A DNA stretch of 64,000 nt from a virus (taxonomy: Duplodnaviria; Heunggongvirae; Uroviricota; Caudoviricetes), in the IMG/VR virus record IMGVR_UViG_3300035698_015309, one strand, 5' to 3'. The position numbers and the translations under genes were made by a program. Below are positions 1 through 63,557 of the stretch, in pieces. Below the pieces are notes generated by a model. It was not told the origin of the DNA and did no database searches. It saw only the letters and a list, made by a program, of their open reading frames with translations. The stretch's first letter is position 1. The number at the start of each line of letters is the position of its first letter.

Positions 1-256
1 AGGTTCTGGTGTGCCCAGATGTTCTGGGGGTGAACACATTGGTACTAACGATCACCCACGAGGCGTAAAACGAGTGCTGAGAGAGCGATTCCGTCTTCGA
101 CGGACCAGTTCCTTGGGATTCGGACGGAAGGAGCAACCGTCATCCGAGCCCTTACCGTTGGGCCGGAAGTTTACTACCGAGGTACTTGGGTCACCAAGAT
201 TCGGCACAGCTTCAAACTTGATGCCTGTTACATTCTAGCAGGTTTTAAGGAACGGT
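1..256 (+). mobile_element. Copy A of the tnpB 3'-end / omega-RNA scaffold + right-end (RE) module, truncated by the window edge. Ends ...AGGTTTTAAGGAACGGT at 256.
   Basis: Close nt similarity to tnpB 3' ends at 8940-9212 and 51530-51812 and to mini-elements at 18540-18802 and 35826-36100(-). ORF 11..238 is in the same frame as the TnpB C-terminus and stops at TAG inside the terminal hairpin CCTGTTACATTCTAGCAGG. Confidence 0.6.
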
Positions 257-7180: not shown

Positions 7181-7717
7181 CTAGTCCTTTTCGTTTTCCG
7201 GAAGAGCGTGAGCCGTGGCCCTACAAATGTCCCGCAGGATCCCTCGGAGCACTTTGGCTTTGTTGTCTGCTTGTAAGGCCCTGTTCAGGGCCTTTTCCTG
7301 TCGATCCTTTTCCTGTACCCTGTCTGCTGTGGCCTTTGCCCGAATTGCCCGCTTTTCCGCTGACCTTATAGCTTCCACCACTATTGTTAGCGCCACATCG
7401 AGTGGTTCAGAGGGAAAGGGAACAGCGCACTGGACATGCTCATAGTCCCAACCCTCGTACTCGTAACTTCCACGAGTAGTGAGCAACTCCAGAGCAGCCT
7501 CAGCGTCCCCTTCTGACGCCTTCTGCGCCAGTTCAAAATGTTTCCTTCTGGTCTCCCAAATCTTGAGGGACTGCCTGTCATTTTGCAGTGCTCTTAGGTA
7601 GGGGTTGTGCTGGGCGTCCACAGCGAATTCCAGAGAACGTGTTTGGAGGTCGGAACGGGTCTCCTCGGAAAGGCTCGAAGGCTCTGGCCCTGGGTCGGGG
7701 TCCTTGACAGTACCCAA
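7181..7717 (-). CDS. hypothetical protein. TTG start overlaps the LE palindrome of the adjacent tnpB element.
   Basis: 178-aa ORF. The 5' end coincides with GGGTCCTTGACAGTACCC, so the true start is uncertain. Confidence 0.35.
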   Translation of the reverse strand: MGTVKDPDPGPEPSSLSEETRSDLQTRSLEFAVDAQHNPYLRALQNDRQSLKIWETRRKHFELAQKASEGDAEAALELLTTRGSYEYEGWDYEHVQCAVPFPSEPLDVALTIVVEAIRSAEKRAIRAKATADRVQEKDRQEKALNRALQADNKAKVLRGILRDICRATAHALPENEKD

Positions 7718-9212
7718 TTTAGTTGCTAAAATCTAACTATTCCTGCTTGAAACAAGAAGCAGAGGTCAGTAAATGAAGTGTCGCATCTTCCGACTTCACA
7801 AGGACACCAACCGATCTAAGATCGATAAGTTGGAAGCCCTGCACAAAGCATATGTCAAGTACGTCCGTATCTGCGTACAGACGATGCTCAACCAGCAAAC
7901 CCTCAACCTCCCGAAAGCCGCCAAACAAACGTTCTTCCCACGGGCTACTGATCTTACGTCTCAAATCGAAAAGATCGCACGAGACCATGCAATTCAAATC
8001 GTAAGTGCTTGGGCCAAAGCTACTTACGCTCGTAAATTAAAGCCGACTATCACCAATCTCAAGCATGACGGTACCCTCACCGATCAGGACGCCAAAGCAC
8101 TCTGTGTCATCGGGTTGAAGTCCATCAGCAAGCCATGGGAGTTCATCACCCAAGACCATCTCGATGCTTATCACACCCTGTTGGACACCTACGGAGGCAA
8201 CAAGCCTATCGTAAGGGACAACCTACCCATGAGGTTGTCAGAAATGACGGCTCGATTGGAAGACACAACTAAAGCTCCTTTGGGGGGTTTTTGGCTGAGG
8301 GTGTCCTCGTTGGAAGCTCGGAAATCCGTCTGGTTGCCTCTTGTTGGGAATCCTTACATCCAGCAGGCTGATCAGGTTAACAAGGGGATATCAGCCCGTA
8401 AAACCAAGAAGGGGTTCTGGCGCTTTGAGGCAGTTAGCAAGGCTGAGTGGACCATTCCTGAAGCACAGGAAGATTGGCCTAAGTTGGGTGTGGATGTGGG
8501 CTTGAACGTGCTTGCAGCTACTTCAGATGGCGTGACCTATGGTGAACACGTCAAACCTAAGTTCGACAAGCTCTACGCTCGTGTCAGAAATCTCCGAGCA
8601 AACCGCCAACGACAGGACCTGAAGGACAACAGCCCAAAGTTGGATCACCTTGAAAGCAAGCTGAGTGGGTTGATCAAGACAGAAACGGGTCGTGTAGTAA
8701 ACACCCTTATCGTCCGCCATCCTGAGACAGTGTTCGTGGTCGAGGATCTCGACCTTCGAGGTTGCCGAGGCCAAAAGCGGTTTGCTTACAGGGCGTTACA
8801 GACCAACTTGGAGAGAAAAGCCCCAACAGAGAAGGTGAACCCGGCTTATACGTCGCAGGAGTGCCCCTCCTGCGGTTACATTCATCGAGGCAACCGAAGT
8901 TCAATAAGGTTCCATTGCCGCTCGTGCGGTAGGAAGGCTCACGCTGATTGGGTGGGAAGTTCTGGTGTGCTCAGACGTTCTGAAGACGAACACATCAAAG
9001 CTGGCGATCATCCAAGAGGTGTAAAACGAGTGCTAAGAGAGCGATTCCGTGTTAAACGGACCAGTTCCTTGGGATTCGGGCGGAAGGAGCAACCGTCATT
9101 CGAGCCCTTACCGTTGGGCCAGAGGCTTACTACCGTTGGATCAGAGTCATTTGGCAGCGGCACAGCTTCAAACTTGATGCCTGTTACATTCCAGCAGGTT
9201 TTAAGGAACGGT
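7697..9212 (+). mobile_element. tnpA-less tnpB element (IS607-derived): LE palindrome GGGTCCTTGACAGTACCC with TTGACA-17-TAAAAT, tnpB, RE ending GGAACGGT
   Basis: LE shared with mini-elements at 18449 and 36179(-). The sequence just upstream of the tnpB ATG matches the tnpA 3' end / tnpB junction of the IS607 copy at 50340-50376. RE identical to the other copies. Confidence 0.7.
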
Positions 9213-9281
9213 ACCAGTGTCCATCAGCGAACCGCCTGTTCACCACCTGGATCATTGCAGCCTGAGCCATCTCGTCCGTAG
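7773..9281 (+). CDS. tnpB: TnpB (RuvC-like RNA-guided nuclease). Stop codon lost (TAG->CAG in the RE hairpin) giving a ~23-aa read-through into the flank.
   Basis: RuvC-I LGVDVGLNV, RuvC-II VFVVEDLDL, YTSQECPSCG...CRSCG zinc finger, HAD RuvC-III. ~90% identical to the tnpB at 50373. Confidence 0.85.
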   Translation: MKCRIFRLHKDTNRSKIDKLEALHKAYVKYVRICVQTMLNQQTLNLPKAAKQTFFPRATDLTSQIEKIARDHAIQIVSAWAKATYARKLKPTITNLKHDGTLTDQDAKALCVIGLKSISKPWEFITQDHLDAYHTLLDTYGGNKPIVRDNLPMRLSEMTARLEDTTKAPLGGFWLRVSSLEARKSVWLPLVGNPYIQQADQVNKGISARKTKKGFWRFEAVSKAEWTIPEAQEDWPKLGVDVGLNVLAATSDGVTYGEHVKPKFDKLYARVRNLRANRQRQDLKDNSPKLDHLESKLSGLIKTETGRVVNTLIVRHPETVFVVEDLDLRGCRGQKRFAYRALQTNLERKAPTEKVNPAYTSQECPSCGYIHRGNRSSIRFHCRSCGRKAHADWVGSSGVLRRSEDEHIKAGDHPRGVKRVLRERFRVKRTSSLGFGRKEQPSFEPLPLGQRLTTVGSESFGSGTASNLMPVTFQQVLRNGTSVHQRTACSPPGSLQPEPSRP

Positions 9282-9534: not shown

Positions 9535-9603
9535 TGTCTACTCAGAGAGGTTCCGAGATGATCCCTTTTGCTCGGTACGGTAGAGAAACACAGGAGGAAG
9601 ACC

Positions 9604-9921: not shown

Positions 9922-9956
9922 CTCGACACATCTGACGAGATCCCAGTCCCCCAATT

Positions 9957-9982
9957 GATCATCGCCGGTCTTCCCCGAGTAG
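9957..9982 (+). promoter_or_regulatory. GATCATC-N13-GAGTAG promoter-like motif in front of the cas operon
   Basis: tGATCATCgccggtcttccccGAGTAGctgtgtgtataggggggacagATG; same two-box motif as upstream of >25 other genes. Confidence 0.4.
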
Positions 9983-10004
9983 CTGTGTGTATAGGGGGGG
10001 ACAG

Positions 10005-12365
10005 ATGCCCAACTGGAACCGAATAGCCCACAGCGCCAGCAAAGTAACCGGCAAGGTCCAAACGATGGTGGAACATCTGTTGGGGGTTGAAGCGCTGACT
10101 CTCCGTTTCCTGGGCACCCACTTCCCACCCCAGCACGTCAGAGAGGTTTCTTTCGCCAGCCGGGGGCATGACATCGGCAAATACAGTCCCCTGTTCCCTG
10201 ATGTACTGAACGGGGTAGCCCGAGGGGTGCTGGATCATTCCTCACCTGGAGCCTGGGTTGCTTACGACCGAGGATCCCTCCTCGCTTCCCTGTTGATCGC
10301 CGGACACCATAGGGGTCTGCCGGATTTCTCACGCGTCTATTTGGGGTGTGTCCTACGCCCCTCTGCACAGCCGATGGGTAGCGGGACTCATCCTAACCCC
10401 GGTGTCTTCCATGTCTATCCGGGGCCAGCGAAAGACTTGTTGGTTCCCCTACGTGAGGATGGCATCGAGCTTCCTGAAATCAATATAAATGATGATGAGA
10501 CCTTCTTTTCTTTTTCTGAACTGGTGAAAGGCTGGCAGTTGTCCATTGCCAAGGGCTTGGATGTCCGAATGGCCTTTTCTGCGCTCGTTGACGCCGACTT
10601 CCTGGACACCGCCGAGCACTTCAAACCAGGGCGCACCTGTCCCAACCCCCCGTTGGACGCCGGTCTCGCCCTTGACGTTTTGAACAAATACATCGACGGC
10701 CTCAGTGCCAAGAGCAAACGCAGCGATGGTGCTTCCCCTGTGGTGCAACAGGAACGGGACCGTCTACGACAGGACTGCCTCAGAGCCGCCCAGGGGCCTC
10801 CAGGACGCATTTTGACCTGTACAGCCCCCACCGGTGTAGGCAAAACTCTAGCGCTGGTCTCGTTCGCCCTGGCGCACTGTCAGGCCCACCAACTTAAACG
10901 GGTGATCATCGCTGTACCCTACAAAAGCATCATTCAACAGACGGCGAAAACCCTGAAGGAGCTTTTCAAGGACCGGGCCTTCGGTCCCCACTTTGTGTTG
11001 GAGCATCACACGGACGCCACGCAGTGGGTCGAAGAGGAGGATCTCCAACAGGATGGTAGATCAAATGAGATTGACCGACGAGGGCTCACTGAAAACTGGG
11101 ATGCACCAATCATCCTCACCACGAACGTTCAACTATTGGAGTCCTTGTTTTCCAATCGGCCAGGGAGATGCCGGAAACTCCACAACATCCAGGACTGCGT
11201 GATCATTTTTGATGAGGGCCAGTCTTTGCCCAGCCACCTTATGCTCCCCACAATAGCAATGCTCGACCGACTCAGCCGTCAGTATCAGGTCACGGTGGTG
11301 TCTGCCACGGCCACCCAGCCTGCCTTCCAGAGCATCCTGCCTCAGGTAGAAACACTCGTGGGGGAACCGCTCCAGCCCTACGAGGAGATTGCCTCCGCCC
11401 CCGTAGCCTCGGCCAAGGCGATGGTCCGCAACAAGTTTCACTGGCCGCACAACGACGACGAGAGGTGGACCTGGGCGCAGTTGGCTGACCGGGTGTGTTC
11501 GGAAAGGATGTCAAACCTCGTGCTTCTCAACAGGAAGGACCATGCGGAAGCGGCCTGGAGGGAAATACAGACACGGTGGGGGGCGGATCGAGCTATCTAT
11601 TTGACTTCCAACCTGTGTCCAGCCCACCGGAAGGGGCTACTCAAAGAGGTGGTTCGTCGGTTGAAGACCGTTGGGGACTACTTCGTTCTGGCAGCTACTC
11701 CTTGTGTGAACTCAGGGACGGACTTCGACTTCAACAGGGGCTTCCCGGCCATGGGACCGTTGGATGGGACGGCACAAACCGCTGGGCGGGTAAACCGGGA
11801 GGGCTTGCGGGTACTAGGGGACATCTTCGTTTTCCGCCCGGACGTTGAATACAAGGACATGTTCCCGCATGACGAGTGGTTCCAGGCTGCTGCCCGGATC
11901 ACGGAGCGGTTCCTCCGGCGCTACGGACAACGTCTCGACCCGACGAACCCGGAAATCTTGACCCAGTACTATGAGGCCCTCTATCGGGAAGCAGGGCTAG
12001 ATCACCCGGCCACCAAAAAGATCATCGAGGCGTACCAGGAGGGTTCCTTCGAGAAGGTCAGTCGACGCTACCGGGTCATTCCCGACAAAGGGGTCCAGGT
12101 CGTCGTTCCCTACCTGGAAGGAGGGTGTGGGGAGCAGTACAGGAAACTCAACAAGGAGCGGCCCACCCGGAAAAGCTTCCGGATGTGGATGAACCGAGCG
12201 GCCCTGCTATCGGTCTCTGTTCTGTCACTGAAGAAGGATCACCCCCTCTGGCTCAGCCTTGACCCCGTCACGCTGAAAAGGAAGGACGGCTCCATCACCG
12301 AAACGGGCTGGTACATCTGCACTGACCCAAGAGCCTACCACCCGGAACTTGGGCTGGTGCAATGA
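10005..12365 (+). CDS. cas3: Cas3 (HD nuclease + SF2 helicase)
   Basis: HD motifs (HDIGKYSPLF, IAGHHRG). Walker A CTAPTGVGKT. DEAD-like IFDEGQS. Start ATG 10005 after a GGGGGGG RBS; the listed GTG at 9987 lies inside the promoter motif. Confidence 0.9.
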   Translation: MPNWNRIAHSASKVTGKVQTMVEHLLGVEALTLRFLGTHFPPQHVREVSFASRGHDIGKYSPLFPDVLNGVARGVLDHSSPGAWVAYDRGSLLASLLIAGHHRGLPDFSRVYLGCVLRPSAQPMGSGTHPNPGVFHVYPGPAKDLLVPLREDGIELPEININDDETFFSFSELVKGWQLSIAKGLDVRMAFSALVDADFLDTAEHFKPGRTCPNPPLDAGLALDVLNKYIDGLSAKSKRSDGASPVVQQERDRLRQDCLRAAQGPPGRILTCTAPTGVGKTLALVSFALAHCQAHQLKRVIIAVPYKSIIQQTAKTLKELFKDRAFGPHFVLEHHTDATQWVEEEDLQQDGRSNEIDRRGLTENWDAPIILTTNVQLLESLFSNRPGRCRKLHNIQDCVIIFDEGQSLPSHLMLPTIAMLDRLSRQYQVTVVSATATQPAFQSILPQVETLVGEPLQPYEEIASAPVASAKAMVRNKFHWPHNDDERWTWAQLADRVCSERMSNLVLLNRKDHAEAAWREIQTRWGADRAIYLTSNLCPAHRKGLLKEVVRRLKTVGDYFVLAATPCVNSGTDFDFNRGFPAMGPLDGTAQTAGRVNREGLRVLGDIFVFRPDVEYKDMFPHDEWFQAAARITERFLRRYGQRLDPTNPEILTQYYEALYREAGLDHPATKKIIEAYQEGSFEKVSRRYRVIPDKGVQVVVPYLEGGCGEQYRKLNKERPTRKSFRMWMNRAALLSVSVLSLKKDHPLWLSLDPVTLKRKDGSITETGWYICTDPRAYHPELGLVQ

Positions 12366-12459
12366 AAAAGTCTGCGGACAGGGGTTCCTTTTGCGACTTC
12401 ATTGAGTAGTAAGAAGTGCCGCCGAAGAAACTCGGCTGGATAAACAGACGGAGGGACAG

Positions 12460-13131
12460 ATGAAAAAAGGTATGCTGCACGGGTTGGAAGTGTGGGGGGA
12501 CAATGCCTGCTTCTCCCGCCCAGAGGTGACGGAGCGGACCACCTACCCCATCCCAACCCACTCAGCCTGTCGGGGGATCTTCGACGCTATCTACTGGAAA
12601 AGGTCCGCCAACTTCTACTGGCAGATCGTCGGGGTAGAGGTTGTGAACCCGATCCGGTACATGGGGATCATGCGGAACGAGATGAAAGACAAGGTCACCC
12701 GCCGCACTCTTCAGGTTGATCTTACAACCCAGAAGCACCGGACCCAAAAGCACACCAGGACTCTCCTGGACCCCCGGTACCGCATCTTCGCACGGGCGGT
12801 CTGCCGGAATCCTGATGGGAACACCAACGCCATCGACGCCCAATTCCGTCGTCGGGCGGAGAGGGGCCAATGTTTCCACCAGCCCTTCTTAGGTTGCAAG
12901 GAGTTTATGGCCAACTTCCAGCTTGTCCCGGTGGATGAGCATGATCCATCACAGGGACTCGCAGACCTTCAGGTGGACGTGGGGGTGATGGTCTACGACA
13001 CCTTCAATCTGCTGGTGCCCGATGGAGATCCTTCGGTCAGCGTGTTCCACGCACAGATCAAGGATGGGGCCGTGGCCTACCCGGAGTTCACTGATAGTGC
13101 CGCCGTGTTCCGGCCAGGGGGTGCAGCATGA
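12460..13131 (+). CDS. cas5: Cas5c (Cas5d) type I-C pre-crRNA endoribonuclease subunit
   Basis: 223 aa directly after cas3. GLEVWGDNACFSRPE...YWKR resembles Cas5d N-terminal blocks. ATGA overlap with cas8c. Confidence 0.8.
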   Translation: MKKGMLHGLEVWGDNACFSRPEVTERTTYPIPTHSACRGIFDAIYWKRSANFYWQIVGVEVVNPIRYMGIMRNEMKDKVTRRTLQVDLTTQKHRTQKHTRTLLDPRYRIFARAVCRNPDGNTNAIDAQFRRRAERGQCFHQPFLGCKEFMANFQLVPVDEHDPSQGLADLQVDVGVMVYDTFNLLVPDGDPSVSVFHAQIKDGAVAYPEFTDSAAVFRPGGAA

Positions 13132-14960
13132 GTGGTATCGGACAGAGCCTCCTCAACTATGCCGCACACTATATGCCCCAGCAGGCTCCGGTGGGGTACG
13201 AGTACCTGACCGTCGTGGAAACCGTAGTGTGCCTGACCCCGGACGGGAAGTACCAGGACTGTCACCTCAGGGACACCAAGACGGCCTCCCCGATCCTGAC
13301 ACCTCGGGTGCCCTCCAATTTGCTCAGGGCCACGCCCCCCAAGACTCACTTCTTCATCGGGTATGTCCCCCAGGTGTTCCCTCTCCTCGTGGCCGAACCG
13401 CACGACAACACCAAGAACGAGGTGAAGAGGGGCCTCTTCCTGGAGCAGATCAGAACGGTCATCAAGGAGGTTCCCTGCACTCGGAAGTACCTGACCCCCA
13501 TCCAGACCTTCCTGGAGGACGACGAGCAGGTCGCCCTTGTGGTTCAGGCTCTGACGAAGATGGAGGCAGACCTCAAGCGGGCTGTGATCTTCCAGACCGA
13601 GGGGAAGAAACTCGGCATCCCGTTCCAGGACAAGAAGGAATGGCGGGAGTGGTGGGCGACCTACCTTTCAGGAGCGGACAAAAAGAAGAAGACCAGCGAT
13701 AAGACGTTCCGCTGCGTCGTCACCGGGGACGAGATCACGAACCCCTGCCGCATCCATCCTGACGGCATTGCCTTCGGCACAACGAAGACGAAGCTGGTTG
13801 CCGCCAAGCAGACCTCCAGTCACCACTATGGCCAGGAGTCTGGCCTCGTTGCTCCGATGTCAGACCAGACGGCGAGCACAATGACCCAGGCTCTGGTTCA
13901 TGCCGCCCAAAACGCCGGGACGGCCTTTGGGGATCTTCGAATCCTTGTGTGGGCTTGTTCCAGGGGAGAAACCCTTACGGGGAAGGCTGGACTGCTGGCG
14001 GGCCAAGGGCCGGTTCTTGAAGGGGGCGAGTGGACCCAGATCCTGTCCGACGTTATGTCCGACCTCTTGAACTCGGGATTGACGGATGGGGAACTCCGGG
14101 GTGCCACCCGGAAGGTGAAGGAATACCTGGACACGGGCACCGGACCGGGAGGTGTCCTAGACATGGACTGCACCTTGGGCATCGTTTCTAGCAACGGTCC
14201 CCGGTTGGCTGTCCGGCACTGGGAGACTGGACCCCTGTCCGTCCTGTTCAAGAACATCTATCGATGGTATCAGGATATGACCATCAGCAACAACCGCAAT
14301 GACACGGGGATCGCCCGCCTTTCTGCACTCTGGCAGATCCTTTCCGCTGTCAACGGCCCAAGGGGCAAAGCTTCCGAACTGGAGCGTGAGATGCTCGTTC
14401 AGGTAGCCCTGCGGGGCCAGTCGGTCCCAATGAGCATTGTCAAAAAGGCCCTGGTGCAGTTCCGGTCACAGTTGCACCTGTCCATCAAACCGTCAACCAA
14501 CATGGGGATCGCTCCGGCATTGCCGGGAATCCTCAAAACCTTCATCAACAGGAGAGGGAACACCATGTGTGAAGCAGGATTGAACAAGGACCACCCGAGT
14601 GTGGCGTACCAGTGTGGGCGGTTGTTGTCCGTCCTGTCCGAACTCCAGAGCCTCGCCATCGGTGGGAGGAACCCCCCGATGGCCCTGGCTGCTCAGTTCT
14701 CGTCCGCAACGATGCAGAACCCGGCCCGTGCGCTGGCCCGGTTACTGCTCCGTTCCGAGAAGCACGTCAACAAGCTCGTCCGACAGGGAAAGGGATGGGC
14801 GGATCACAAACGGCAGGAGATCGTCGACCGCCTGCCCACAGACCTTCCGACCCGCCTCGGCATCGAGGATCAAGCTTTGTTTGCCATGGGGTTGCTCCAC
14901 CAGCGCTCGTCCTGGAAGAAGCAGGACAAGCCCGCAGGGACACCCCCGATTAAGGCATAG
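13128..14960 (+). CDS. cas8c: Cas8c (Csd1) large subunit
   Basis: 610 aa between cas5 and cas7 in canonical I-C order. Size typical. No closer motif recognised by eye. Confidence 0.75.
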   Translation: MSGIGQSLLNYAAHYMPQQAPVGYEYLTVVETVVCLTPDGKYQDCHLRDTKTASPILTPRVPSNLLRATPPKTHFFIGYVPQVFPLLVAEPHDNTKNEVKRGLFLEQIRTVIKEVPCTRKYLTPIQTFLEDDEQVALVVQALTKMEADLKRAVIFQTEGKKLGIPFQDKKEWREWWATYLSGADKKKKTSDKTFRCVVTGDEITNPCRIHPDGIAFGTTKTKLVAAKQTSSHHYGQESGLVAPMSDQTASTMTQALVHAAQNAGTAFGDLRILVWACSRGETLTGKAGLLAGQGPVLEGGEWTQILSDVMSDLLNSGLTDGELRGATRKVKEYLDTGTGPGGVLDMDCTLGIVSSNGPRLAVRHWETGPLSVLFKNIYRWYQDMTISNNRNDTGIARLSALWQILSAVNGPRGKASELEREMLVQVALRGQSVPMSIVKKALVQFRSQLHLSIKPSTNMGIAPALPGILKTFINRRGNTMCEAGLNKDHPSVAYQCGRLLSVLSELQSLAIGGRNPPMALAAQFSSATMQNPARALARLLLRSEKHVNKLVRQGKGWADHKRQEIVDRLPTDLPTRLGIEDQALFAMGLLHQRSSWKKQDKPAGTPPIKA

Positions 14961-15020
14961 TCTCTAATGGCCTAAGGTGGGCCTTAGAGTTGGATTAGGC
15001 ATAAAGTGAGGAGAAGTATC

Positions 15021-16031
15021 ATGAAGGATCTTTTGATGTGGCTGAAGAGTGGGACGGCGGCAATCGGATACAGGTTCGAGATCTTGTTCCTGTTCGATTG
15101 TCTGATGGGGAATCCCAACGGTGACCCCGACTTCGGCAACCTGCCCCGGACCATCCCGGACACGGGACACGGGTTCGTCACCGACGTCGCCATCAAGCGG
15201 CGTCTCCGCAACTACGTGAGTCTCCGCAAGGCAGGCAAGACCCCGTACCAGATTTTGCTGATGATGAACACCTGTACCAACAGGCTCATCGCCAAGGCCC
15301 ACGAGGACTCCCACGGGACCGTCCCGGCGAAGGCTACCAAGCAGGAGGAGCGGGCGGCGGGTGACCGGATGTGCCAGGACTATTGGGATGTCCGCACCTT
15401 CGGCGGTGTTCTCAACACAGGTGCCAAGGCGGGCCAGATTCGTGGACCCGTCCAGGTGGTGAGTGCCCGGTCCCTCGATCCGGTATCCATCCAGGAGATC
15501 ACCATCACCCGCATGACCGACACCAAGGGCTCCCCTGATCCCAAGAAGGTCAAGACCCCCAAGGATCAGGGTTTCTCCTCCGCCCAGTGGCAGGAGTATG
15601 AGGACGGGGCCGAGGCGGCGGCTCTCCGCACGATGGGAACCAAGGCGATCATCCCCTACGGTCTCTTCGCTGCCAACATCACGGTGAGCGCTTTCGTGGC
15701 GGAACAGACGGGCTTCTCGGCGGAGGATCTGGCCCTGATGATCGAGGGTCTGGAAAACATGTACGACCATGATCGGACCTCCAGCAAGGGTTTGATGACC
15801 TGTCGGGGCATCTACATCTTCAAGCACGTCGGGACGGCGGACGACCCCGAAGAGCGGGCACAGCAGGCCAAGCTCGGGTGCGCCCCGGCCCATAAGCTGC
15901 TGGACAACGGACGCATCGTGACTGTGGTCAAAAAGGACGGGGTAGAGGCCCCGATGTCCTTCGACGACTACACTGTCACCGTGGACGAGTCCAAGCTCCC
16001 GGAAGGTGTCGAGTTCCGGGCCATCCAGTAA
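15021..16031 (+). CDS. cas7: Cas7c (Csd2) backbone subunit
   Basis: MGNPNGDPDFGNLPR signature near the N-terminus. AGGAG RBS before ATG 15021. Last cas gene before the leader and array. Confidence 0.85.
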   Translation: MKDLLMWLKSGTAAIGYRFEILFLFDCLMGNPNGDPDFGNLPRTIPDTGHGFVTDVAIKRRLRNYVSLRKAGKTPYQILLMMNTCTNRLIAKAHEDSHGTVPAKATKQEERAAGDRMCQDYWDVRTFGGVLNTGAKAGQIRGPVQVVSARSLDPVSIQEITITRMTDTKGSPDPKKVKTPKDQGFSSAQWQEYEDGAEAAALRTMGTKAIIPYGLFAANITVSAFVAEQTGFSAEDLALMIEGLENMYDHDRTSSKGLMTCRGIYIFKHVGTADDPEERAQQAKLGCAPAHKLLDNGRIVTVVKKDGVEAPMSFDDYTVTVDESKLPEGVEFRAIQ

Positions 16032-16227: not shown

Positions 16228-17418
16228 GTCGCATCCTCTAACAAAGGATGCGTGGATTGAAACAGAGAGTACGTGCAGGCGTCCAGCGGGCTCAAGCCAA
16301 CGGAAAGTCGCATCCTCTAACAAAGGATGCGTGGATTGAAACGTTACTGCCCGCATGACACCCCGGATGAGATCACCAGTCGCATCCTCTAACAAAGGAT
16401 GCGTGGATTGAAACACTGTGGACCTGGCGGGGAAGAAGCCGACCTATGGTGGTGTCGCATCCTCTAACAAAGGATGCGTGGATTGAAACTTTCAAACAGC
16501 GACCCAGTCGAGTGCGACTTGGTGGGTGTCGCATCCTCTAACAAAGGATGCGTGGATTGAAACAAGTGCCTCGCCGTCAAGGATCCAGAGGGGAAGCTGA
16601 AGTCGCATCCTCTAACAAAGGATGCGTGGATTGAAACAGGCCCACAGAACGGCTCCCACGGCCTGGGGACGCCGTGTCGCATCCTCTAACAAAGGATGCG
16701 TGGATTGAAACGCTCAGAGGACTGCTCGACGGGACAAGACGGTCTTCCTCGTCGCATCCTCTAACAAAGGATGCGTGGATTGAAACTCGAAGTTGGGCGA
16801 AATCCAGGAATGACGGTCACAAGTCGCATCCTCTAACAAAGGATGCGTGGATTGAAACAATCCGATGACACTTCCCTTTCCTGTCCGCCCTTGGAGCGTC
16901 GCATCCTCTAACAAAGGGTGCGTGGATTGAAACGAGATCCCCCTTGCGACTCCCGCCCTGAAGGCGCTGGCGAAGTCGCATCCTCTAACAAAGGGTGCGT
17001 GGATTGAAACGTAAGCGAACTCCACCCCTGGTCCGTGGGTGACCGGTCGCATCCTCTAACAAAGGGTGCGTGGATTGAAACGCAGTGAGCCAGCGCCCCA
17101 CGAGCCATGCCTGCCTTACTGTCGCATCCTCTGAAAAAAGGATGCGTGGATTGAAACTAAATCCGATTTACGGGGAACTGGCTGGTCGGCTCACGTCGCA
17201 TCCTCTAACAAGGGGTGCGTGGATTGAAACGCTGATTCGGACTGATCCCTGAGAAGGCGCAACCCTGCCGTCGTACCATCTAACAAGGGGATGCGTGGAT
17301 TGAAACGAAACCGCAGCGAGGCAGAAGGGGTCACTCCCTCACGGGTGTGTGGATTGAAACATTAGGGTAGTAAGTGTAGACAACCTCGTCGTTCCCATGA
17401 GGGGGCGTGGATTGAAAC
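16228..17418 (+). CRISPR. Type I-C CRISPR array: 15 well-conserved 36-37-nt repeats (GTCGCATCCTCTAACAAAGGATGCGTGGATTGAAAC) plus 2 degenerate terminal repeats. Spacers 35-43 nt. Leader at 16035-16227.
   Basis: Repeat starts 16228, 16307, 16379, 16454, 16528, 16602, 16676, 16751, 16823, 16898, 16975, 17046, 17121, 17195, 17270; degenerate ends at 17360 and 17418. Distal repeats carry GGATGC->GGGTGC/GGGGTGC variants. Repeat ends in the I-C-typical GTGGATTGAAAC. Confidence 0.95.
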
Positions 17419-17501: not shown

Positions 17502-18401
17502 ATGATGACGCTTTGGATGAAACTGGCGGTCTTAGCCGTCCTGGGGACAACGACCCCGGAGCAGACCACCCACCCTGCATATACCCCGTACTCTTACGAC
17601 CAGACCCTCACTGCAGTGGCGGAGACCATCACAGCGGAAGAGGCTGAGTTGATCCTCACCGTTGACGTGGAGGAGGAGATCAACTACTGGATGATCAAGG
17701 AGCACTTCGGGTTCGATGACACCGTAATAGAGGACATCCTACATGTGGCCTTGCACACGGCAGAGGAGCCGATGCTCATCGCCCACATTGTTTCCACGGA
17801 AAGCGGTGGGGACCGTGACGTCATCAACTACTGTAAGGTGTGGGGTGAGCCCTTCTACAACGAGAGCAAAGAACGCTGGGAGAAGAAGTGCGTCAAGCTC
17901 GGCTCCTGCTACACGAACTGCCGGAAAAAGCGGCATGTTTGGAGGAACCACCTCGACGTCGGTCTGTATCAGCTTCGGGACGTGGTCGAGCGGGTCGGTG
18001 GCCCTGAGGACTCCAAGCGGTTCTGCGGGTGGTCCTGGTTGCGAGACTTTGAACGGGACACGGGTCGGGATGTGTCCTCTGAGTGCGCCCTGGAGCGTTT
18101 CTGTGCCCGTGACGCAATGATCCACGCCGTACACACCCTCCGGGAGGAACAGCTTGCAGCGGCCCACAGGGGCGTTGGTAAGGCCAACTGCCGGGGTCTC
18201 CCTGACGAATGGAAGTGGATGGGCCTGTGGAACGGTTGCAAGAGCGCCAGGAACCATGCAGACCACACTGCTCCCCTGGTTGAGATGCGGGACTTCCACG
18301 TCCGTCTGACGATGTTGCGGTACCGTATTGATGAGATTGCCGAGAAATGGCCGCTCTTGGGCTACCTCATTGTGCCCCTGAAAGGACAAAAGGTAGTTTG
18401 A
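17502..18401 (+). CDS. secreted protein with lytic-transglycosylase (SLT)-like motifs
   Basis: Signal-like N-terminus MMTLWMKLAVLAVLG. IVSTESGG...DVGLYQL resembles the SLT ES...GLMQ. GAGTAGAC plus AGGAGG upstream. Confidence 0.45.
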   Translation: MMTLWMKLAVLAVLGTTTPEQTTHPAYTPYSYDQTLTAVAETITAEEAELILTVDVEEEINYWMIKEHFGFDDTVIEDILHVALHTAEEPMLIAHIVSTESGGDRDVINYCKVWGEPFYNESKERWEKKCVKLGSCYTNCRKKRHVWRNHLDVGLYQLRDVVERVGGPEDSKRFCGWSWLRDFERDTGRDVSSECALERFCARDAMIHAVHTLREEQLAAAHRGVGKANCRGLPDEWKWMGLWNGCKSARNHADHTAPLVEMRDFHVRLTMLRYRIDEIAEKWPLLGYLIVPLKGQKVV

Positions 18402-18430
18402 AGCAGGGCAGACGCAATATAAAGAGTCGA

Positions 18431-18816
18431 GTCGTATCCTTTGACAAAGGGTACTTGACAGTGCCCTTCATACCTGCTAAAGTCTAACTGTTCCTGCTTG
18501 AAACAGGGAGCTGTTGCGGCAGGAAAGCTCATGCTGATTGGGTAGGAGGTTCTGGTGTGCCCAGATGTTCTGGGGACGAACGCATCAAAACTAACGATCA
18601 TCCGAGAGGCATAAAACGAGTGCTAAGAGAGCGATTCCGTGTTAAACGGACCAGTTCCTTGGGATTCGGACGGAAGGAGCAACCGTCATTCGAGCCCTTA
18701 CCGTTGGGCCGGAAGTTTACTACCGAGGTACTTGGGACACCAAGATTCGGCACAGCTTCAAACTTGATGCCTGTTACATTTTAGCAGGTTTTAAGGAACG
18801 GTATGTGGATTGAAAC
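18431..18816 (+). repeat. Solitary CRISPR repeat split by a mini-element: 5' hairpin part GTCGTATCCTTTGACAAAGGGTAC (18431-18454) and 3' handle TGTGGATTGAAAC (18804-18816)
   Basis: The two halves reconstruct a repeat variant with the same hairpin. Insertion is at the stem-loop/handle junction. Confidence 0.65.
18449..18802 (+). mobile_element. Miniature omega-RNA-only element, copy B: LE palindrome GGGTACTTGACAGTGCCC (TTGACA-17-TAAAGT) fused by internal deletion to the tnpB 3' end/RE
   Basis: LE matches 7697 and 36179(-). Junction CTTGAAACAGGG|AGCTGTTGCGGCAGG identical to copy C. RE identical to the tnpB copies. ORF 18557..18784 is the in-frame remnant. Confidence 0.7.
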
Positions 18817-18934
18817 ACGATGTTGATGTTCCACCTTGATGACCTGACTCAGGAGTGGCCGCTCAGGGGGCTGGATCAACGCTCCTAAAAGTCGGGGCCT
18901 TGTGGTTGTGCGTTTTTGACGGTTAGGAGAACGG

Positions 18935-19201
18935 CTACGCAGCCACTTTCTTTTTAGCGACCTCTTCCTTACCGAACGTCAGGGAATGGGCCTCGATGAT
19001 CTCCACGATCCGGGTACCCTCAGCGATGCGGAGCACTTCCAGCTTCTCGGGGGTGGCTTCCTTCCGGGTCACGTTGAGGACACGCTTGGTGCCACCGTAA
19101 CCGGGGACCGAGATGGTCACCTCCTGATAATCCTCCGACCAGCGGTACGGACCCTTGGTGTAGGAATGACCCTTGGTGATTACGGGTGTAGACTTCGTCA
19201 T
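18935..19201 (-). CDS. hypothetical protein (88 aa)
   Basis: AGGAG RBS before the ATG. Confidence 0.45.
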   Translation of the reverse strand: MTKSTPVITKGHSYTKGPYRWSEDYQEVTISVPGYGGTKRVLNVTRKEATPEKLEVLRIAEGTRIVEIIEAHSLTFGKEEVAKKKVAA

Positions 19202-20315: not shown

Positions 20316-20542
20316 CATCGTTTCATTCTCCTCAGGGGTCATTTGCCCCTCACTTACTCTACTCAGCGGGGTCAGCAGATGATCCCATTGCACGTAAGGA
20401 TCTAAGGAAGGTGTGTCCGAAACGGCCCTTGAGCAAAGACCCCCAGAACTTTTGTTGATCATCTCAGATTCCGTTGGAGTAGTGTGGGTAGCCTGAGGAA
20501 GGCTCACTAACATCGGGGTGGACCCCCGAGAAGGAGAATGGG

Positions 20543-22514: not shown

Positions 22515-23078
22515 ATGAGCCTCACACTAGAAGACCTCCAAGATCACAAGAAGGTCAGTTGGGATACCTTCCGTTCGGTGCCGCTCGGGTTGCACGAAGG
22601 GGAGGAACTGGAGATCCGGTTCCTGCTGAACAAGGCTGGGGAGCACAAAATCGGCCTGTTTGACCCACGGCGCCACTGGTGGTCGGTGTGCTCATCCACT
22701 ACGGAGGAAGCGGACGCAGTTGTCAGCTTCAACGCCATCCTTGGTGCCGTCCCTACCCCGCTGCAAAGGAAAACCATCACCTTCCAGTCTGAGGGGGACA
22801 GCAAACCGGATTTCGAAAAGGGTGAGGATGAGGTCGTCAACTACCACCTCACCCTGTACGGCATGTTCGTTGGCAATCTCCGAGTCGGCAAATTCCAGGG
22901 TCAGGTAGAGCACTACGACACGATACTCTTCCCCGAATCAGCGCAGGACGATGCCGCCTATCAGATGCAGTACGGACAGCTTGTGCTCGCCTGTTACGAG
23001 TTCGTGCGGGGCCTCTACGACGCCCACGCTGCCGCTGCCCTTAGCCCCGTGGGATCATCTCCGGCACCCACAGAGTAG
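22515..23078 (+). CDS. hypothetical protein. C-terminal ...GSSPAPTE* is encoded by the intergenic motif.
   Basis: AAGGAG RBS. Stop codon is the TAG of GAGTAG. Confidence 0.45.
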   Translation: MSLTLEDLQDHKKVSWDTFRSVPLGLHEGEELEIRFLLNKAGEHKIGLFDPRRHWWSVCSSTTEEADAVVSFNAILGAVPTPLQRKTITFQSEGDSKPDFEKGEDEVVNYHLTLYGMFVGNLRVGKFQGQVEHYDTILFPESAQDDAAYQMQYGQLVLACYEFVRGLYDAHAAAALSPVGSSPAPTE

Positions 23079-23100
23079 ACAGGGTGTATGGAGGTGGCAA

Positions 23101-23301
23101 ATGACCACAGAACAGAGTCAGGCACTTCAAGGCGTACAGGGAAAAGTCATCAAAGACATAAAAGTCGGGGAGATGACCTCTTGGTGTGACAGCGGCGAGG
23201 TCCAGATCCGGTGCAGCGACGGAACGATCATTCGGATCAGTACCATTGCCGATGCCGAGGACAACAGAGCCTTCCTCGCACTGTCCGTCACCGTGCGGTA
23301 G
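23101..23301 (+). CDS. hypothetical small protein
   Basis: Full motif plus GGAGG upstream. Confidence 0.35.
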   Translation: MTTEQSQALQGVQGKVIKDIKVGEMTSWCDSGEVQIRCSDGTIIRISTIADAEDNRAFLALSVTVR

Positions 23302-23751
23302 TTGGGACTCCGACAACCACCGGGGGTTATCATCGAAGCCCCACGTCCGTCCCTGTGCCTGCACCCGGACGATCATCCTTTATGGGAAACAATGGAACGG
23401 CTGGCTTGGGTTCTTGCGAACAGTCACGGTCTACCCCTCCATTTTGTAGAACCCAAACGTAGACCCCTGTCCGATGGAGCAGCGGGAGTATGCTATTGCC
23501 ACGAGAGGCGTATTGCAATCCGGCTCCGGTGTAAGGATCGTGTAGAAGACGGCGGGGGGTGGTGGTCGAAGCCAGACCCCTGGGATCAGATCGTATTGAC
23601 GGTTGCCCATGAGGTTGCCCACCTCCGACATCCCAATCACGGAGCAGACTTCAAGGACCTGGAACAACGCCTGTACCGAGAAGCTCAGGAACTGCTAGGG
23701 TGTTGGGATCATCCCCGGCACCCACAGAGTAGACAGGGTGAGGGGGAATGA
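23302..23751 (+). CDS. SprT/Wss1-like putative zinc metallopeptidase (HEVAHLRHPNHGADF)
   Basis: HExxH...H motif. Start uncertain (TTG 23302 or ATG ~23389). Confidence 0.4.
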   Translation: MGLRQPPGVIIEAPRPSLCLHPDDHPLWETMERLAWVLANSHGLPLHFVEPKRRPLSDGAAGVCYCHERRIAIRLRCKDRVEDGGGWWSKPDPWDQIVLTVAHEVAHLRHPNHGADFKDLEQRLYREAQELLGCWDHPRHPQSRQGEGE

Positions 23752-23770
23752 CCCCCGAGGAGGATCTTAA

Positions 23771-24346: not shown

Positions 24347-24382
24347 TTAAGGTGAGGGGCAAATGACCCCTGGGAGGATGCG

Positions 24383-27631: not shown

Positions 27632-27704
27632 GAAGGAAGGGATCATCTCACCACCCTGTTGAGTAGTCCAAGTGAGGGGCAAACGTCCCCTGGGAGGCTC
27701 ACCG

Positions 27705-35825: not shown

Positions 35826-36179
35826 ACCGTTCCTTAAAACCTGCTAAAATGTAACAGGCATCAAGTTTGAAGCTGTGCCGAATCTTGGTGACCCAAGTAC
35901 CTCGGTAGTAAACCTCCGGCCCAACGGTAAGGGCTCGATTGACGACCGCTCTAATCGCCCGAATCCTAAGGAACTGGTCCGTCGAAGACGGAATCGCTCT
36001 CTCAGCACTCGTTTTACGCCTCGTGGATGATCGCCAGCTTTGGTGTGTTCATTCCCAGAACATCTGGGCACACCAGAACCTCCTACCCAATCAGCATAAG
36101 CCTTCCTGCCACAACAGCTCCCTGTTTCAAGCAGGAATAGTTAGACTTTAGTAAGTTTGAGGGGTACTGTCAAGTACCC
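35826..36179 (-). mobile_element. Miniature omega-RNA-only element, copy C (minus strand): LE palindrome GGGTACTTGACAGTACCC at 36162-36179, RE at 35826
   Basis: Reverse complement is near-identical to copy B including the deletion junction. ORF 35844..36071(-) is the remnant frame. Confidence 0.7.
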
Positions 36180-38704: not shown

Positions 38705-38740
38705 GTCGCATCTTTTGGCAAAAGGTGCGTGGATTGAAAC
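38705..38740 (+). repeat. Solitary CRISPR repeat GTCGCATCTTTTGGCAAAAGGTGCGTGGATTGAAAC
   Basis: Identical 5' GTCGCATC and 3' GCGTGGATTGAAAC. Stem-loop sequence differs from the array repeat but stays self-complementary. No second repeat within 200 nt. Confidence 0.8.
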
Positions 38741-49538: not shown

Positions 49539-49745
49539 ATGAAACGAACCATGATCGTCCGAGTGACCACAACCGAATTTGAAACGTCTGATGGACGGGT
49601 GATCCCACACCCCATTCCGTTTGATCCCGATGAGGTGCCTACCGTCGAAGAGTTCCAACAACAGTACAACAGGTGGCGCAAGGTCTTTGAAGATCAAGGA
49701 CTGGTGTTTCCCATACCTGATGCGGGAGATGAGGATGCTGACTGA
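49539..49745 (+). CDS. hypothetical small protein. 3' end overlaps the tnpA start and may be truncated by, or part of, the IS607 element.
   Basis: Hairpin CCTCCAC-N9-GTGGAGG embeds the RBS. Confidence 0.3.
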   Translation: MKRTMIVRVTTTEFETSDGRVIPHPIPFDPDEVPTVEEFQQQYNRWRKVFEDQGLVFPIPDAGDEDAD

Positions 49746-50376
49746 TCGTCTCCTAGCTCTCACCAAAGCAGCCGAAGCTCTTGGTGTTCACCGGAATACG
49801 CTTCGGGACTGGGCTGATGAAGACAAGATCCCTCACGTTCGCACCGTGGGTGGGCATCGCCGTTTCAAGCAATCAGACATTGACAGGTTGCTGGGCAATC
49901 TCCCAATCGATAAACAGCAAACGGAACGAGTTGTTATCTACTGCCGTGTGTCCAGCCACGATCAGAAAAAGTCAGGCGATCTTGAACGTCAGGCTGGACG
50001 GGTCACGATACACAGCATCACGAAGCAGTACAAGTTGGTCGAAGTGCTTCAAGACGTTGGGTCGGGCATGTCAGACACACGCCCAAAACTCCGAAAGTTG
50101 TTCAAACTGGTCAATGCCCATGAAATAGATAGGGTGGTTGTTGAACACAAAGACCGCCTGACTCGCTTCGGGTTCAATCTGGTCAATGCTTACTTCAACA
50201 GTCATGGTGTCACCATCGAGTGGACACAAGAAGTCCTTGGCAAAGGCTATCAGGAAGAGTTGGTCGAAGACATTTTGACGCTCATGTCGTCGTTCTCCGC
50301 TAAGATTTATGGCAAACGTTCGGCAGAACGACGTAAGGCCAAGAAAGCAGCAGAAGCGGCAGAGACAGTCAAATGA
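49720..50376 (+). CDS. tnpA: IS607 TnpA: MerR-like HTH fused to a serine-recombinase catalytic domain (start ATG 49720-49735)
   Basis: LTKAAEALGVHRNTLRDWADEDKIPHVRTVGGHRRF then VVIYCRVSSHDQ (catalytic Ser) ...RQ. Confidence 0.8.
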   Translation: MREMRMLTDRLLALTKAAEALGVHRNTLRDWADEDKIPHVRTVGGHRRFKQSDIDRLLGNLPIDKQQTERVVIYCRVSSHDQKKSGDLERQAGRVTIHSITKQYKLVEVLQDVGSGMSDTRPKLRKLFKLVNAHEIDRVVVEHKDRLTRFGFNLVNAYFNSHGVTIEWTQEVLGKGYQEELVEDILTLMSSFSAKIYGKRSAERRKAKKAAEAAETVK

Positions 50377-51797
50377 AATGTCGCATCTTCCGACTTCATA
50401 AAGATACCAATCAGTCCAAAATCGACAAGTTGGAAGTCCTACACAATGCCTACGTCAAGTACGTCCGTATCTGCGTACAAACGATGCTTGACCAGCGGGT
50501 CTATAATCTCCCGAAAGCCGCCAAACAAACGTTCTTCCCACGGGCCACCAACCTTACGTCTCAGATCGAAAAGAACGCACGAGACCATGCAATACAAATC
50601 GTGAGCGCTTGGGCGAAAGCTACTTATGCTCGTAAGTTGAAGCCAACCATTACCAACCTTAAGCATGACGGTACCCTTACCGATCAGGATGCCAAAGCAC
50701 TCTATGTCATCGGATTGAAGTCCATCAGTAAACCGTGGAAAGTTATTACTCAAGACCATCTCGACGCCTACCACACCCTGTTGGACACCTACGGAGGTAA
50801 TAAGCCTATCGTAAGAAACAACCTACCCATGAGGTTGTCGGAGATGACGGCTCGATTGGAAGATACATCGAAGGCCCCTCTCGGGGATTTCTGGCTGAGA
50901 GTATCCTCGTTAGAAGCTCGTAAGTCCGTCTGGTTACCCCTCGTTGGGAATCCTTACATCCAACAGGCTGATCAGGTCAGTAAAGGCATTTCGGTCCGCA
51001 AGACCAAGCGAGGCTTCTGGCGCTTTGAAGCTGTCAGCAAGGCCGAGTGGGCCGTTCCTGAAGCACAGGAGGGTTGGCCTAAGTTGGGCGTTGACGTTGG
51101 TCTGAACGTCCTTGCAGCTACCTCAGATGGAGTGACCTATGGTGAGCACGTCAAGCCCAAATTCGATAAGCTCTATGCTCGTGTCAGAAATCTCCGAGCA
51201 AATCGCCAACGACAGGATTTGAAAGACAACAGTCCAAGGTTAGATCACCTTGAGAGCAAGTTGAGTGGGTTGATCAAGACAGAAACGGGTCGTGTGGTGA
51301 ATACCCTCATCGCCCGTCATCCCGAGACGGTGTTCGTAGTCGAAGATCTTGATCTTCGAGGTTGCCGGGGTCAAAAGCGGTTCGCTTACAGGGCGTTACA
51401 GATCAACTTGGAAAGGAAGGCTCCAACAAAGAAAGTGAACCCTGCTTACACGTCGCAGGAGTGTCCTTCTTGTGGTTATGTTCATCGAGGAAACCGAAGT
51501 TCAATAAGGTTCCGTTGCCGCTGTTGTGGCAGGAAGGCTCACGCTGATTGGGTAGGAAGTGCTGGTGTGCTCAGACGTTCTGGGAACGAACACATTGGAA
51601 CTGGTGATCACCCACGAGGCGTAAAACGAGTGCTGAGAGAGCGATTCCGTCTTCGACGGACCAGTTCCTTGGGATTCGGGCGAAAAGAGCAACCGTCATT
51701 CGAGCCCTTACCGTTGGGCCGGAGGCTTACTACCGTTGGATCAGATTCGTCTGGCAGCGGCACAGCTTCAAACTTGATGCCTAGTAGATTCAAGTAG
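50373..51797 (+). CDS. tnpB: TnpB (RuvC + zinc finger), intact stop
   Basis: ~90% identical to 7773..9281. CPSCGYVHRGN...CRCCGRKAHADW. Confidence 0.85.
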   Translation: MKCRIFRLHKDTNQSKIDKLEVLHNAYVKYVRICVQTMLDQRVYNLPKAAKQTFFPRATNLTSQIEKNARDHAIQIVSAWAKATYARKLKPTITNLKHDGTLTDQDAKALYVIGLKSISKPWKVITQDHLDAYHTLLDTYGGNKPIVRNNLPMRLSEMTARLEDTSKAPLGDFWLRVSSLEARKSVWLPLVGNPYIQQADQVSKGISVRKTKRGFWRFEAVSKAEWAVPEAQEGWPKLGVDVGLNVLAATSDGVTYGEHVKPKFDKLYARVRNLRANRQRQDLKDNSPRLDHLESKLSGLIKTETGRVVNTLIARHPETVFVVEDLDLRGCRGQKRFAYRALQINLERKAPTKKVNPAYTSQECPSCGYVHRGNRSSIRFRCRCCGRKAHADWVGSAGVLRRSGNEHIGTGDHPRGVKRVLRERFRLRRTSSLGFGRKEQPSFEPLPLGRRLTTVGSDSSGSGTASNLMPSRFK

Positions 51798-52008
51798 GTT
51801 TTGAGGAACGGTTTACGCCACCCTCTCCATCTGTGTAAGAGACTTGGTGCAAACCCTGGACCCGAATGCTTTCATCCTGCATCACGACATCAAACACCCG
51901 CTGATCAGGGCTCTCCTGGCCAGCGGACTTTTCGAGGACACGGGTAAGGTCGCAAGCTACGGGTTCGTCTTTGATCGGCCCGTGTGGAAACTACTTAAGG
52001 AGGACTGA

Positions 52009-63520: not shown

Positions 63521-63557
63521 GTCGCATCTTCTGAAAAGAATATGCGTGGATTGAAAC
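63521..63557 (+). repeat. Solitary CRISPR repeat GTCGCATCTTCTGAAAAGAATATGCGTGGATTGAAAC (37 nt, GAAA tetraloop variant)
   Basis: Conserved termini. Divergent but still self-complementary stem. Intergenic between two minus-strand genes. Confidence 0.8.

Follow-up and report, generated by a model that had tools for sequence, protein, structure and literature searches.

A probable IS607-type mini-element insertion at the GGGT of a solitary type I-C CRISPR repeat in a huge phage

The type I-C locus and its interrupted repeat

According to its description (Panwar et al. 2020, PMC7416419), the phage to which the window (the whole stretch of DNA analyzed here, 64,000 nucleotides) belongs is a huge phage from Ace Lake, Antarctica, with a complete circular genome of 528,260 bp (Ga0208769_1000001), a type I-C system without cas1, cas2 and cas4, and repeats identical to those of its presumed bacterial hosts; the same text reports the phage in several sampling years. 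In the window, the type I-C genes, the array and the intact solitary repeats lie as follows:

9987..16031, plus strand: cas3-cas5c-cas8c-cas7c operon (cas3 9987-12365, cas5c 12460-13131, cas8c 13128-14960, cas7c 15006-16031)
16228..17418, plus strand: type I-C CRISPR array of 17 repeats, the last ones degenerate; consensus GTCGCATCCTCTAACAAAGGATGCGTGGATTGAAAC
38705..38740, plus strand: intact solitary type I-C repeat
63521..63557, plus strand: intact solitary type I-C repeat, 37 nt

The window's type I-C locus lacks cas4, cas1 and cas2. Huge-phage CRISPR-Cas loci without adaptation genes were reportedly described by Al-Shayeb et al. in 2020. The type I-C identity of the repeats is apparent from their length (36 nt in the rebuilt unit, where ~32-37 nt is expected), their internal hairpin (97.6% of cells paired across the repeats), their 3' ...ATTGAAAC handle and their location beside cas3-cas5c-cas8c-cas7c. 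Outside the array, at least four solitary type I-C repeats occur in ~67 kb of the phage, three of them intact (at 38705, at 63521 and at position 1934 of contig L001) and one, beginning at 18431, that is split. These are single units in a phage genome: no significant second repeat was found within 110 nt on either side of the solitary repeats, and the idea of a mini-array at these sites was discarded on that ground. No gene family is common to their neighborhoods, and no promoter-like site was detected 5' of the intact units.

The split unit occupies the two ends of the stretch 18431-18816, whose letters agree with those quoted earlier:

18431..18452, plus strand: left part (positions 1-22) of an interrupted solitary type I-C repeat, ending in GGGT (18449-18452), the transposon target and presumed TAM
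18453..18802, plus strand: copy C, a putative 350-nt non-autonomous IS607-type mini-element whose terminal GGT (18800-18802) duplicates the GGT at 18450-18452
18803..18816, plus strand: positions 23-36 of the interrupted repeat, its right part (AT plus GTGGATTGAAAC)

A sequence-only reading of this DNA had proposed that the flanks of the insert rebuild a type I-C repeat, and the alignments bear this out. At 18805-18816, GTGGATTGAAAC agrees letter for letter with the 3' part of the array repeat; it has 20 matches in the window, against 0.3 expected, and stands outside the array at 18805, 38729 and 63546. For the handle at 18805, GTCGTATCCTTTGACAAAGGGTAC stands 350 nt 5' of it. The stretch 18431-18454 is the sole non-array 24-mer in the window with no more than five mismatches to the 5' part of the repeat, and a match this close would arise by chance in the 400 nt 5' of a handle with a probability of ~1.5e-5; given this unique 24-mer and the handle, the splitting of a solitary repeat by the insert is real. 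Excision of 18453-18802 (the element plus one GGT) leaves GTCGTATCCTTTGACAAAGGGTATGTGGATTGAAAC, exactly 36 nt, which aligns without gaps to the array repeat and retains a 7-bp stem, in which one C:G pair has become U:A by compensatory change and G:U pairs fill in elsewhere. The 24-mer could alternatively have been a part of the element itself; its last 6 nt (GGGTAC/GGGTCC) do recur at other left junctions, but its first 18 nt do not. The gene downstream of the insertion (18935-19201) is convergent.

An IS607-like element family and its junctions

Copy C is related to four other copies in the window, two of which carry genes:

1..256, plus strand: copy A, a third mini-element of which the window has the 3' part; contig L001 carries it in full (3268-3617)
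7702..9213, plus strand: copy B, with left end, tnpB and right end, tnpA deleted; the tnpB ORF (7773-9281) reads through the right end
35826..36175, minus strand: copy D, a second mini-element, 90% identical to 18453-18802
49621..51813, plus strand: copy E, with tnpA, tnpB and a right end that finishes at 51813
49621-50376, plus strand: tnpA ORF of copy E, a serine recombinase; HTH from residue 48, likely start ATG 49736
50373-51797, plus strand: tnpB of copy E, directly downstream of tnpA and overlapping its stop by 4 nt
18455..18483, plus strand: sigma-70-like promoter in the left end of copy C, TTGACA-17-TAAAGT with a TG extension
18557..18784, plus strand: remnant ORF in copy C, TnpB C-terminus, 75 codons, no functional gene

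Copy C contains no gene; compared with the full-length tnpB elements, it retains the left end and the final ~290 nt. This agrees with the earlier description of the insert as a left end joined to a tnpB 3' end/omega-RNA region, except that its length is 350 nt (18453-18802) rather than 354 bp. All mini copies are built in this way, from a left end of ~57-65 nt, with its promoter, fused to the terminal ~290 nt, which specify a strongly structured RNA. Counting the window copies and the metagenomic copies L024 and L025, at least five such mini-elements of 349-350 nt are present at five different loci, are 86-92% identical and share the same internal deletion junction; they appear to be a non-autonomous family that arose by one deletion and was then transposed. 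The TTGACA-17-TAAAGT noted in the sequence-only reading (10/12 matches) is indeed the sole promoter-like site in 18250-19000, and copy B has TTGACA-17-TAAAAT at the equivalent place.

The tnpB ORFs of copies B and E (502 and 474 aa) are 91% identical. As had been stated, two intact tnpB genes are available in trans; tnpA is likewise present in trans. TnpB matches the Pfam families Cas12f1-like_TNB (5.9e-13) and, weakly, OrfB_IS605, has distant PDB matches to Cas12f, CasPhi and TnpB, and displays DVGLN, VVEDL and HADW motifs, whose catalytic assignment is by eye only. The tnpA ORF (49621-50376) encodes an N-terminal HTH_17/MerR domain (residues 48-91) followed by a Resolvase domain (residues 104-245, E = 2e-21; Pfam). 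Because this MerR-HTH/resolvase TnpA lies directly upstream of tnpB, the family is assigned as IS607-like, and the mini-elements would be a new non-autonomous member of it. The serine TnpA is presumably tied to the mini-element ends by association, as a left end of copy E was sought upstream of tnpA and none was recognizable. Also in keeping with IS607 are the absence of terminal inverted repeats and of a target-site duplication, and the presence of the core at both junctions and once in the empty site. No Y1 transposase was found among the ~30 window ORFs scanned with Pfam, a set that holds few of the small ORFs.

The junctions follow the same pattern throughout the family. Left junctions read (R)GGGT at 8/8 independent sites, with (A/C)C-TTGACA directly 3' of the GGGT in seven of the eight (the left end in L021 is internally deleted). 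Right ends read GGAAC-GGT, then variable sequence, in every readable copy (nine right ends, 10 distinct downstream flanks), and GGT is common to both junctions in all copies. At the sequence level, (R)GGGT on the left fits a target that would double as the TAM, and the ACGGT of the right end a non-TAM look-alike. A related phage contig, L031, provides the empty site for copy A, which splits a small gene conserved in the related phage. Removal of the element and one GGT makes copy A gap-free to L031, with a 72-aa uninterrupted match to a 78-aa protein (score 273), whereas retention of GGGTAC, as an IS200/IS605-style rule would have it, introduces a frameshift exactly at the junction (score 167). 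As the L031 empty site holds one copy, the single GGT belongs to the target. Which bases make up the TAM, and where the guide begins, are inferred by analogy.

Applied to copy C, the junction rule from copy A places the insertion inside the 3' arm of the stem and not exactly at the hairpin/handle junction or Cas5c site as had been proposed. The crossover falls at repeat positions 20-22, and Cas5c would be expected to cut 3-5 nt further downstream. The AC at 18453-18454 is then the first two bases of the element, positions 1-22 of the repeat ending at 18452, and the hairpin visible upstream, previously taken as intact, is chimeric. On the other side, the 'one A' is no orphan base but part of an AT (18803-18804) that corresponds to repeat positions 23-24. 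This serine-type reconstruction leaves no extra base in the repeat, whereas an IS605-style one needs a 2-nt insertion. The pre-insertion repeat obtained from the junction rule predicts an uninterrupted allele reading ...AAAGGGTATGTGGATTGAAAC; under the junction model, the empty allele would read ...TTTGACAAAGGGTATGTGGATTGAAAC, and the donor joint after excision of the element is predicted as AAAGGGTATGTGG. As crossover core, GG and GT would both be compatible with the shared GGT.

Exact-protein look-ups of both flanking genes showed that every contig reaching the locus carries the insert; many of these contigs break inside the element. At least six different samples (JGI, ENA, Logan) yielded contigs with the insertion, which is fixed in the sampled population. 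No uninterrupted allele was seen among the contigs reaching the site, and pattern scans of IMG/VR with both junction models gave no match to one; relatives of the upstream gene are followed by different DNA, consisting of I-E-like mini-arrays. IMG/VR holds no other right-end/handle junction. A scan of GTDB genomes with the flanking protein gave no match, a GTDB scan with a conserved 19-mer gave three matches in taxa unrelated to one another, close to the chance expectation, and blastn against phage and plasmid collections gave none.

The presumed omega-RNA and its predicted target

The part of copy C that is homologous to the full-length elements has the features of a guide-RNA scaffold:

18515..18802, plus strand: presumed omega-RNA scaffold (tnpB 3' end homologue plus right end), with the end ...GGAACGG(U)

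Identity of this region to copies B and E is 83-87%. Compared with shuffled sequences, the 3' ~290 nt fold more stably (z-score -5.85), and the consensus structure over eight copies comprises 92 pairs, with 98.2% of cells paired. Covariation amounts to 12 compensatory pairs (both sides changed), compared with 5.8 +/- 1.5 in shuffles (0/500) and at most three in slid controls. An Rfam search with the region gave no family match, including to RAGATH and known omega-RNA. The conserved, modeled structure fits an omega-RNA, and the mini-element probably still makes one, the guide of which would be the adjoining DNA, (U)AUGUGGAUUGAAACAC...

AT plus GTGGATTGAAAC adjoins the right end, and the earlier expectation that the guide of a putative omega-RNA would begin with the 3' part of the repeat is thus upheld. 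The predicted guide is AUGUGGAUUGAAAC..., that is, (U)AUGUGGAUUGAAACACGAUG past the right end, with the GGGT of the left flank as TAM; the right repeat part (18803-18816) would form its first 14 nt. Apart from the locus itself, no place in the window matches TAM and guide perfectly. In this register, all array and solitary repeats have GC, not AU, at the two TAM-proximal positions, and GGGT is in register in 5/17 array repeats and missing from the other 12/17. The array-variant target in the TAM register is GGGT-GCGTGGATTGAAAC, whereas the cognate target expected to be cut is GGGT-ATGTGGATTGAAAC, given also as GGGT-ATGTGGATTGAAACAC. As the array repeats mismatch next to the TAM and most of them lack GGGT, the guide would specify the unoccupied version of its own solitary repeat and not the CRISPR array, which is the ordinary homing or retention logic of a TnpB element. 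The view that the guide matches every repeat thus holds for the 12-nt identity but not in the TAM register, with its mismatches at positions 1-2 and its five GGGT-bearing repeats. The closest near-match is the degenerate repeat at 17325 (ACGGGT followed by GTGTGGATTGAAACAT), with one mismatch to the guide in the first 15 positions, through which some off-target activity on the array may arise.

The choice of a repeat as the target can be compared with the sites on offer. Outside the elements, the window contains 77 non-coding GGGT sites; 14 are in CRISPR DNA, and six of these 14 fall at repeat positions 19-22. At least nine independent insertion sites are known, and only that of copy C lies in a repeat; one repeat insertion among at least nine sites is about the chance expectation. 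The insertion landed in a repeat because this repeat variant contains the GGGT target of the family. None of the other right-end flanks among these sites is repeat-like after multiple-test correction, and the right flank of L003, considered as a second repeat association, was rejected (a 10-nt match, p ~0.03 before correction for nine tests).

Interpretation and relation to known systems

The reading that we favor, with a probability of roughly 80%, is an ordinary IS607-type mini-element insertion at the GGGT of a solitary type I-C repeat, with no TnpB/CRISPR hybrid. A mini-element from which tnpA and tnpB had been deleted would have been mobilized in trans by the serine-recombinase TnpA of the phage and integrated into a solitary type I-C repeat of the same genome, chosen because the 3' arm of its hairpin contains GGGT, the target motif with a GG core. 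After recombination at the shared GG(T), the left flank would retain repeat positions 1-22 and the right side positions 20-36; once transcribed and loaded by TnpB, the guide, together with the GGGT TAM, would be directed to the unoccupied version of the element's own site (homing or retention). Such an event requires no special biology and is most likely an ordinary selfish insertion. Processing by type I-C Cas5c depends on the repeat hairpin and the adjoining handle. Because the hairpin stands 350 nt from the handle at 18805 and none lies directly 5' of it, the split repeat is probably dead as a Cas5c/Cascade substrate, and the interrupted unit probably inactive for Cas5c processing. That the element 'disables' the repeat, as had been suggested, is therefore plausible as a side effect. 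An RNA species starting at UGGAUUGAAAC would mark Cas5c processing of the handle.

The most far-reaching alternative is a functional TnpB/CRISPR hybrid, in which a guide built on the repeat handle aims TnpB at repeats of the phage itself, its host or rival phages, or in which the junction is a Cas12-type precursor. The 14 nt of repeat with which the guide would open, the GGGT that puts five of the 17 array repeats in register, the single mismatch to repeat 17325 and the availability of tnpB and tnpA in trans all speak for it, as does the identity of host and phage repeats reported in PMC7416419. Weighing more heavily, the array and solitary repeats mismatch the guide at both TAM-proximal positions and 12 of the 17 array repeats lack GGGT; the insert contains no tnpB and lies in a class 1 repeat with its own effector; and a single case in at least nine insertion sites is what chance would give, IMG/VR holding no other right-end/handle junction. 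We regard this hybrid as very unlikely, and the Cas12-precursor reading put forward from the sequence alone is unsupported. It is no more than a long shot that the omega-RNA is loaded by the phage TnpB as a nuclease against GGGT-bearing type I-C repeats, either the intact form of this solitary repeat in related phages or near-cognate repeats in host or rival arrays; if true, a CRISPR repeat would here naturally supply the guide with which TnpB homes into CRISPR DNA or attacks it. A small chance thus remains that the repeat-derived guide is functional. It is also improbable, if slightly less so, that the insertion has been kept because it is useful, either through a promoter-driven handle transcript (crRNA-like, or antisense to gene 18935-19201) or because switching off the repeat is advantageous. 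A strong promoter-like site does read toward the handle, the downstream gene is convergent, and the insertion is fixed across at least six samples of a phage that is reported over several sampling years (PMC7416419); yet a neutral insertion in a single clonal phage population is equally expected to be fixed, the conservation is seen within one population, and Cas5c processing is unlikely now that the hairpin no longer precedes the handle.

Two further alternatives concern the nature of the element and the assembly. An IS200/IS605 element with a Y1 TnpA, moving by peel and paste with a 6-nt TAM (GGGTAC) and inserted right after the hairpin of a 38-nt ancestral repeat, would account for the GGGT(A/C)C found 5' of TTGACA at the left junctions, for the apparently intact visible hairpin and for the weak Pfam OrfB_IS605 match. 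This model was dropped once the sole transposase linked to tnpB proved to be a serine recombinase and the empty-site comparison gave a frameshift; it also requires the 2-nt insertion in the repeat, of which the serine model has no need, and is highly improbable. Least credible is a mis-assembly that joined two half-repeats to a repeated element. In contigs L003, L005 and L020 the left flank of this locus is indeed followed by different right flanks, and many contigs break within the element, but the flanks complement one another to an exact 36-nt repeat, and the junctions are identical in assemblies made independently by JGI and ENA, the closed 528-kb genome among them.

The favored reading, an ordinary mini-element insertion, has close parallels in the IS607 family, for which the transposition mechanism was treated by Chen et al. 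2018 (PMC6188088) and in which CboIStron, studied by experiment, recombines at a GG core, uses TGGG both as its target and as its TAM, and has a scaffold RNA (omega-RNA) with UCGG at its end (Zedaveinyte et al., PMC10690162). Like these elements, the phage family has a MerR-HTH serine TnpA directly 5' of tnpB, GG at both junctions, an xGGG target that presumably doubles as the TAM, a right end of the xCGG type (here ACGG(T), with RGGG(T) on the left) and a presumed omega-RNA that overlaps the tnpB 3' end and the right end. Unlike CboIStron, the phage elements contain no group I intron, their core is extended to GGT by a conserved T, their presumed omega-RNA has no Rfam match, and their host is a huge phage, in which they are known here from sequence.

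PATEs are non-autonomous MITE-like mini-derivatives of IS200/IS605. The phage mini-elements resemble these and other MITE-like mini-derivatives in keeping only the ends and the guide-RNA region and in having spread to several loci, presumably with a transposase provided in trans, but appear to be derived from IS607 rather than from a Y1-type element and have their own promoter and a complete presumed omega-RNA.

The solitary repeats, in turn, recall the RNA anti-CRISPRs (Racr, including RacrIC1), which are viral solitary repeat units (Camara-Wilpert et al. 2023, PMC10651486): they are single type I-C repeats in a phage, intergenic, with hairpin and handle preserved, and the presumed hosts share the repeat. 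Racr act as small RNAs that bind Cas proteins and inhibit interference. The phage repeats differ in that, unusually, the Ace Lake phage owns a type I-C effector and array, in that no promoter is found at the intact units and in that the unit at 18431 is split. In the accessible text of PMC7416419, neither solitary repeats nor IS607/TnpB elements are mentioned for this phage.

Type V systems (Cas12) originated from TnpB (Altae-Tran et al. 2023, PMC10691335), and the locus is similar to such an origin in that a TnpB-family guide-RNA scaffold abuts CRISPR repeat sequence. By contrast, no nuclease gene lies at the junction, the repeat is of class 1 and stands alone, evolutionary conservation of the arrangement is lacking, and the target motif explains the placement. 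The linkage of a TnpB or Cas12 gene to an array with scaffold-derived or scaffold-pairing repeats, by which type V is recognized, is absent from the locus.

The locus indicates that the target and TAM of an IS607-type TnpB (GGGT, with its GG core) can occur inside the stem of a CRISPR repeat, and that the first bases of an element may then mimic an intact hairpin and lead to misleading boundary calls. Promoter-plus-omega-RNA mini-elements have spread in a 528-kb phage that also carries a serine TnpA, two TnpBs, a type I-C effector, an array and solitary repeats, and the locus is suited to studying whether TnpB guides and CRISPR repeats interfere with one another and what solitary repeats do beside matching Cas proteins.

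Copies of the TnpB element in and around the window

Mini-element copy A of the IS607-type TnpB element, complete in the metagenomic contig L001 (3268-3617, corresponding to window 1-256), breaks a small gene whose counterpart is intact in the related phage L031 (~3635-3871, 78 aa), and this pair of loci served as the empty-site test. In several metagenomic contigs (L003 from 3647, L005 at ~1340-1500, and L020), one shared left flank leads into differing right flanks. Such contigs are either chimeras, produced when the assembly passed through the repeated element, or genuine recombinants of different copies.

In copy B, the stop codon of tnpB (7773-9281) is lost and the reading frame continues for 28 codons beyond the transposon right end, the ORF lengths being 502 aa (copy B, with readthrough) versus 474 aa. 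In copy E, no recognisable left end was found in 49250-49740, upstream of the serine tnpA. The start of this gene overlaps with the stop of a small ORF ahead of it; copy E may therefore be immobilised. A third TnpB-like ORF is unrelated to the other two.

39486-39671, small HTH_17 ORF ahead of the third TnpB-like ORF
39637-41067, third TnpB-like ORF, with TNB domain and transposase PHROG

A recurrent intergenic motif and other genes

More than 20 intergenic occurrences of the motif GGGATCATC-N12-GAGTAG lie in the window, in the orientation of the downstream gene, and in many of them a GAGGGG...CCCCTG hairpin and a ribosome-binding site come next. The motif resembles a promoter or 5'-UTR module specific to this phage.

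Examples of the motif in the window
23051-23111
23705-23765
24319-24379
27639-27699
29810-29870
3262-3292, reverse orientation
6646-6681, reverse orientation
20353-20388, reverse orientation

The phage also encodes a protein with WGR, PARP regulatory and PARP catalytic domains (5070-6617), its gene being kept beside the same gene in the relatives L026, L028 and L031. Separately, ORF 61552-62988 contains an 89% identical 57-nt direct repeat (61552-61608 and 61846-61902), the two units having a spacing of 294 nt and an ATG at the start.

CRISPR modules and solitary repeats

Related marine huge phages carry mini-arrays of 2-3 repeats just downstream of their homologue of ORF 17502-18401, the gene preceding the split solitary repeat. 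Their repeat, GTGTATCCCCCACGTAAGTGGGGATGGCAAG, is I-E-like and differs from the type I-C repeat.

L026 ~6750-6860, I-E-like mini-array
L028 ~9240-9420, I-E-like mini-array, followed by a cas3-HD...cas6e-like operon (genes 9482-15560)

This neighbourhood looks like a hotspot where CRISPR modules collect. Three solitary type I-C repeats are intact.

Window 38705-38740, array strand
Window 63521-63557, array strand
L001 1934-1969, array strand

All three are flanked by convergent genes whose 3' ends face the repeat, and in one case an MBL-fold gene (weakly Apyc1-like) ends 9 nt before it. Compensatory changes preserve their hairpins, and no second repeat lies within 110 nt of any of them. What is unusual about this phage's solitary type I-C repeats is that the same phage encodes matching Cas proteins.
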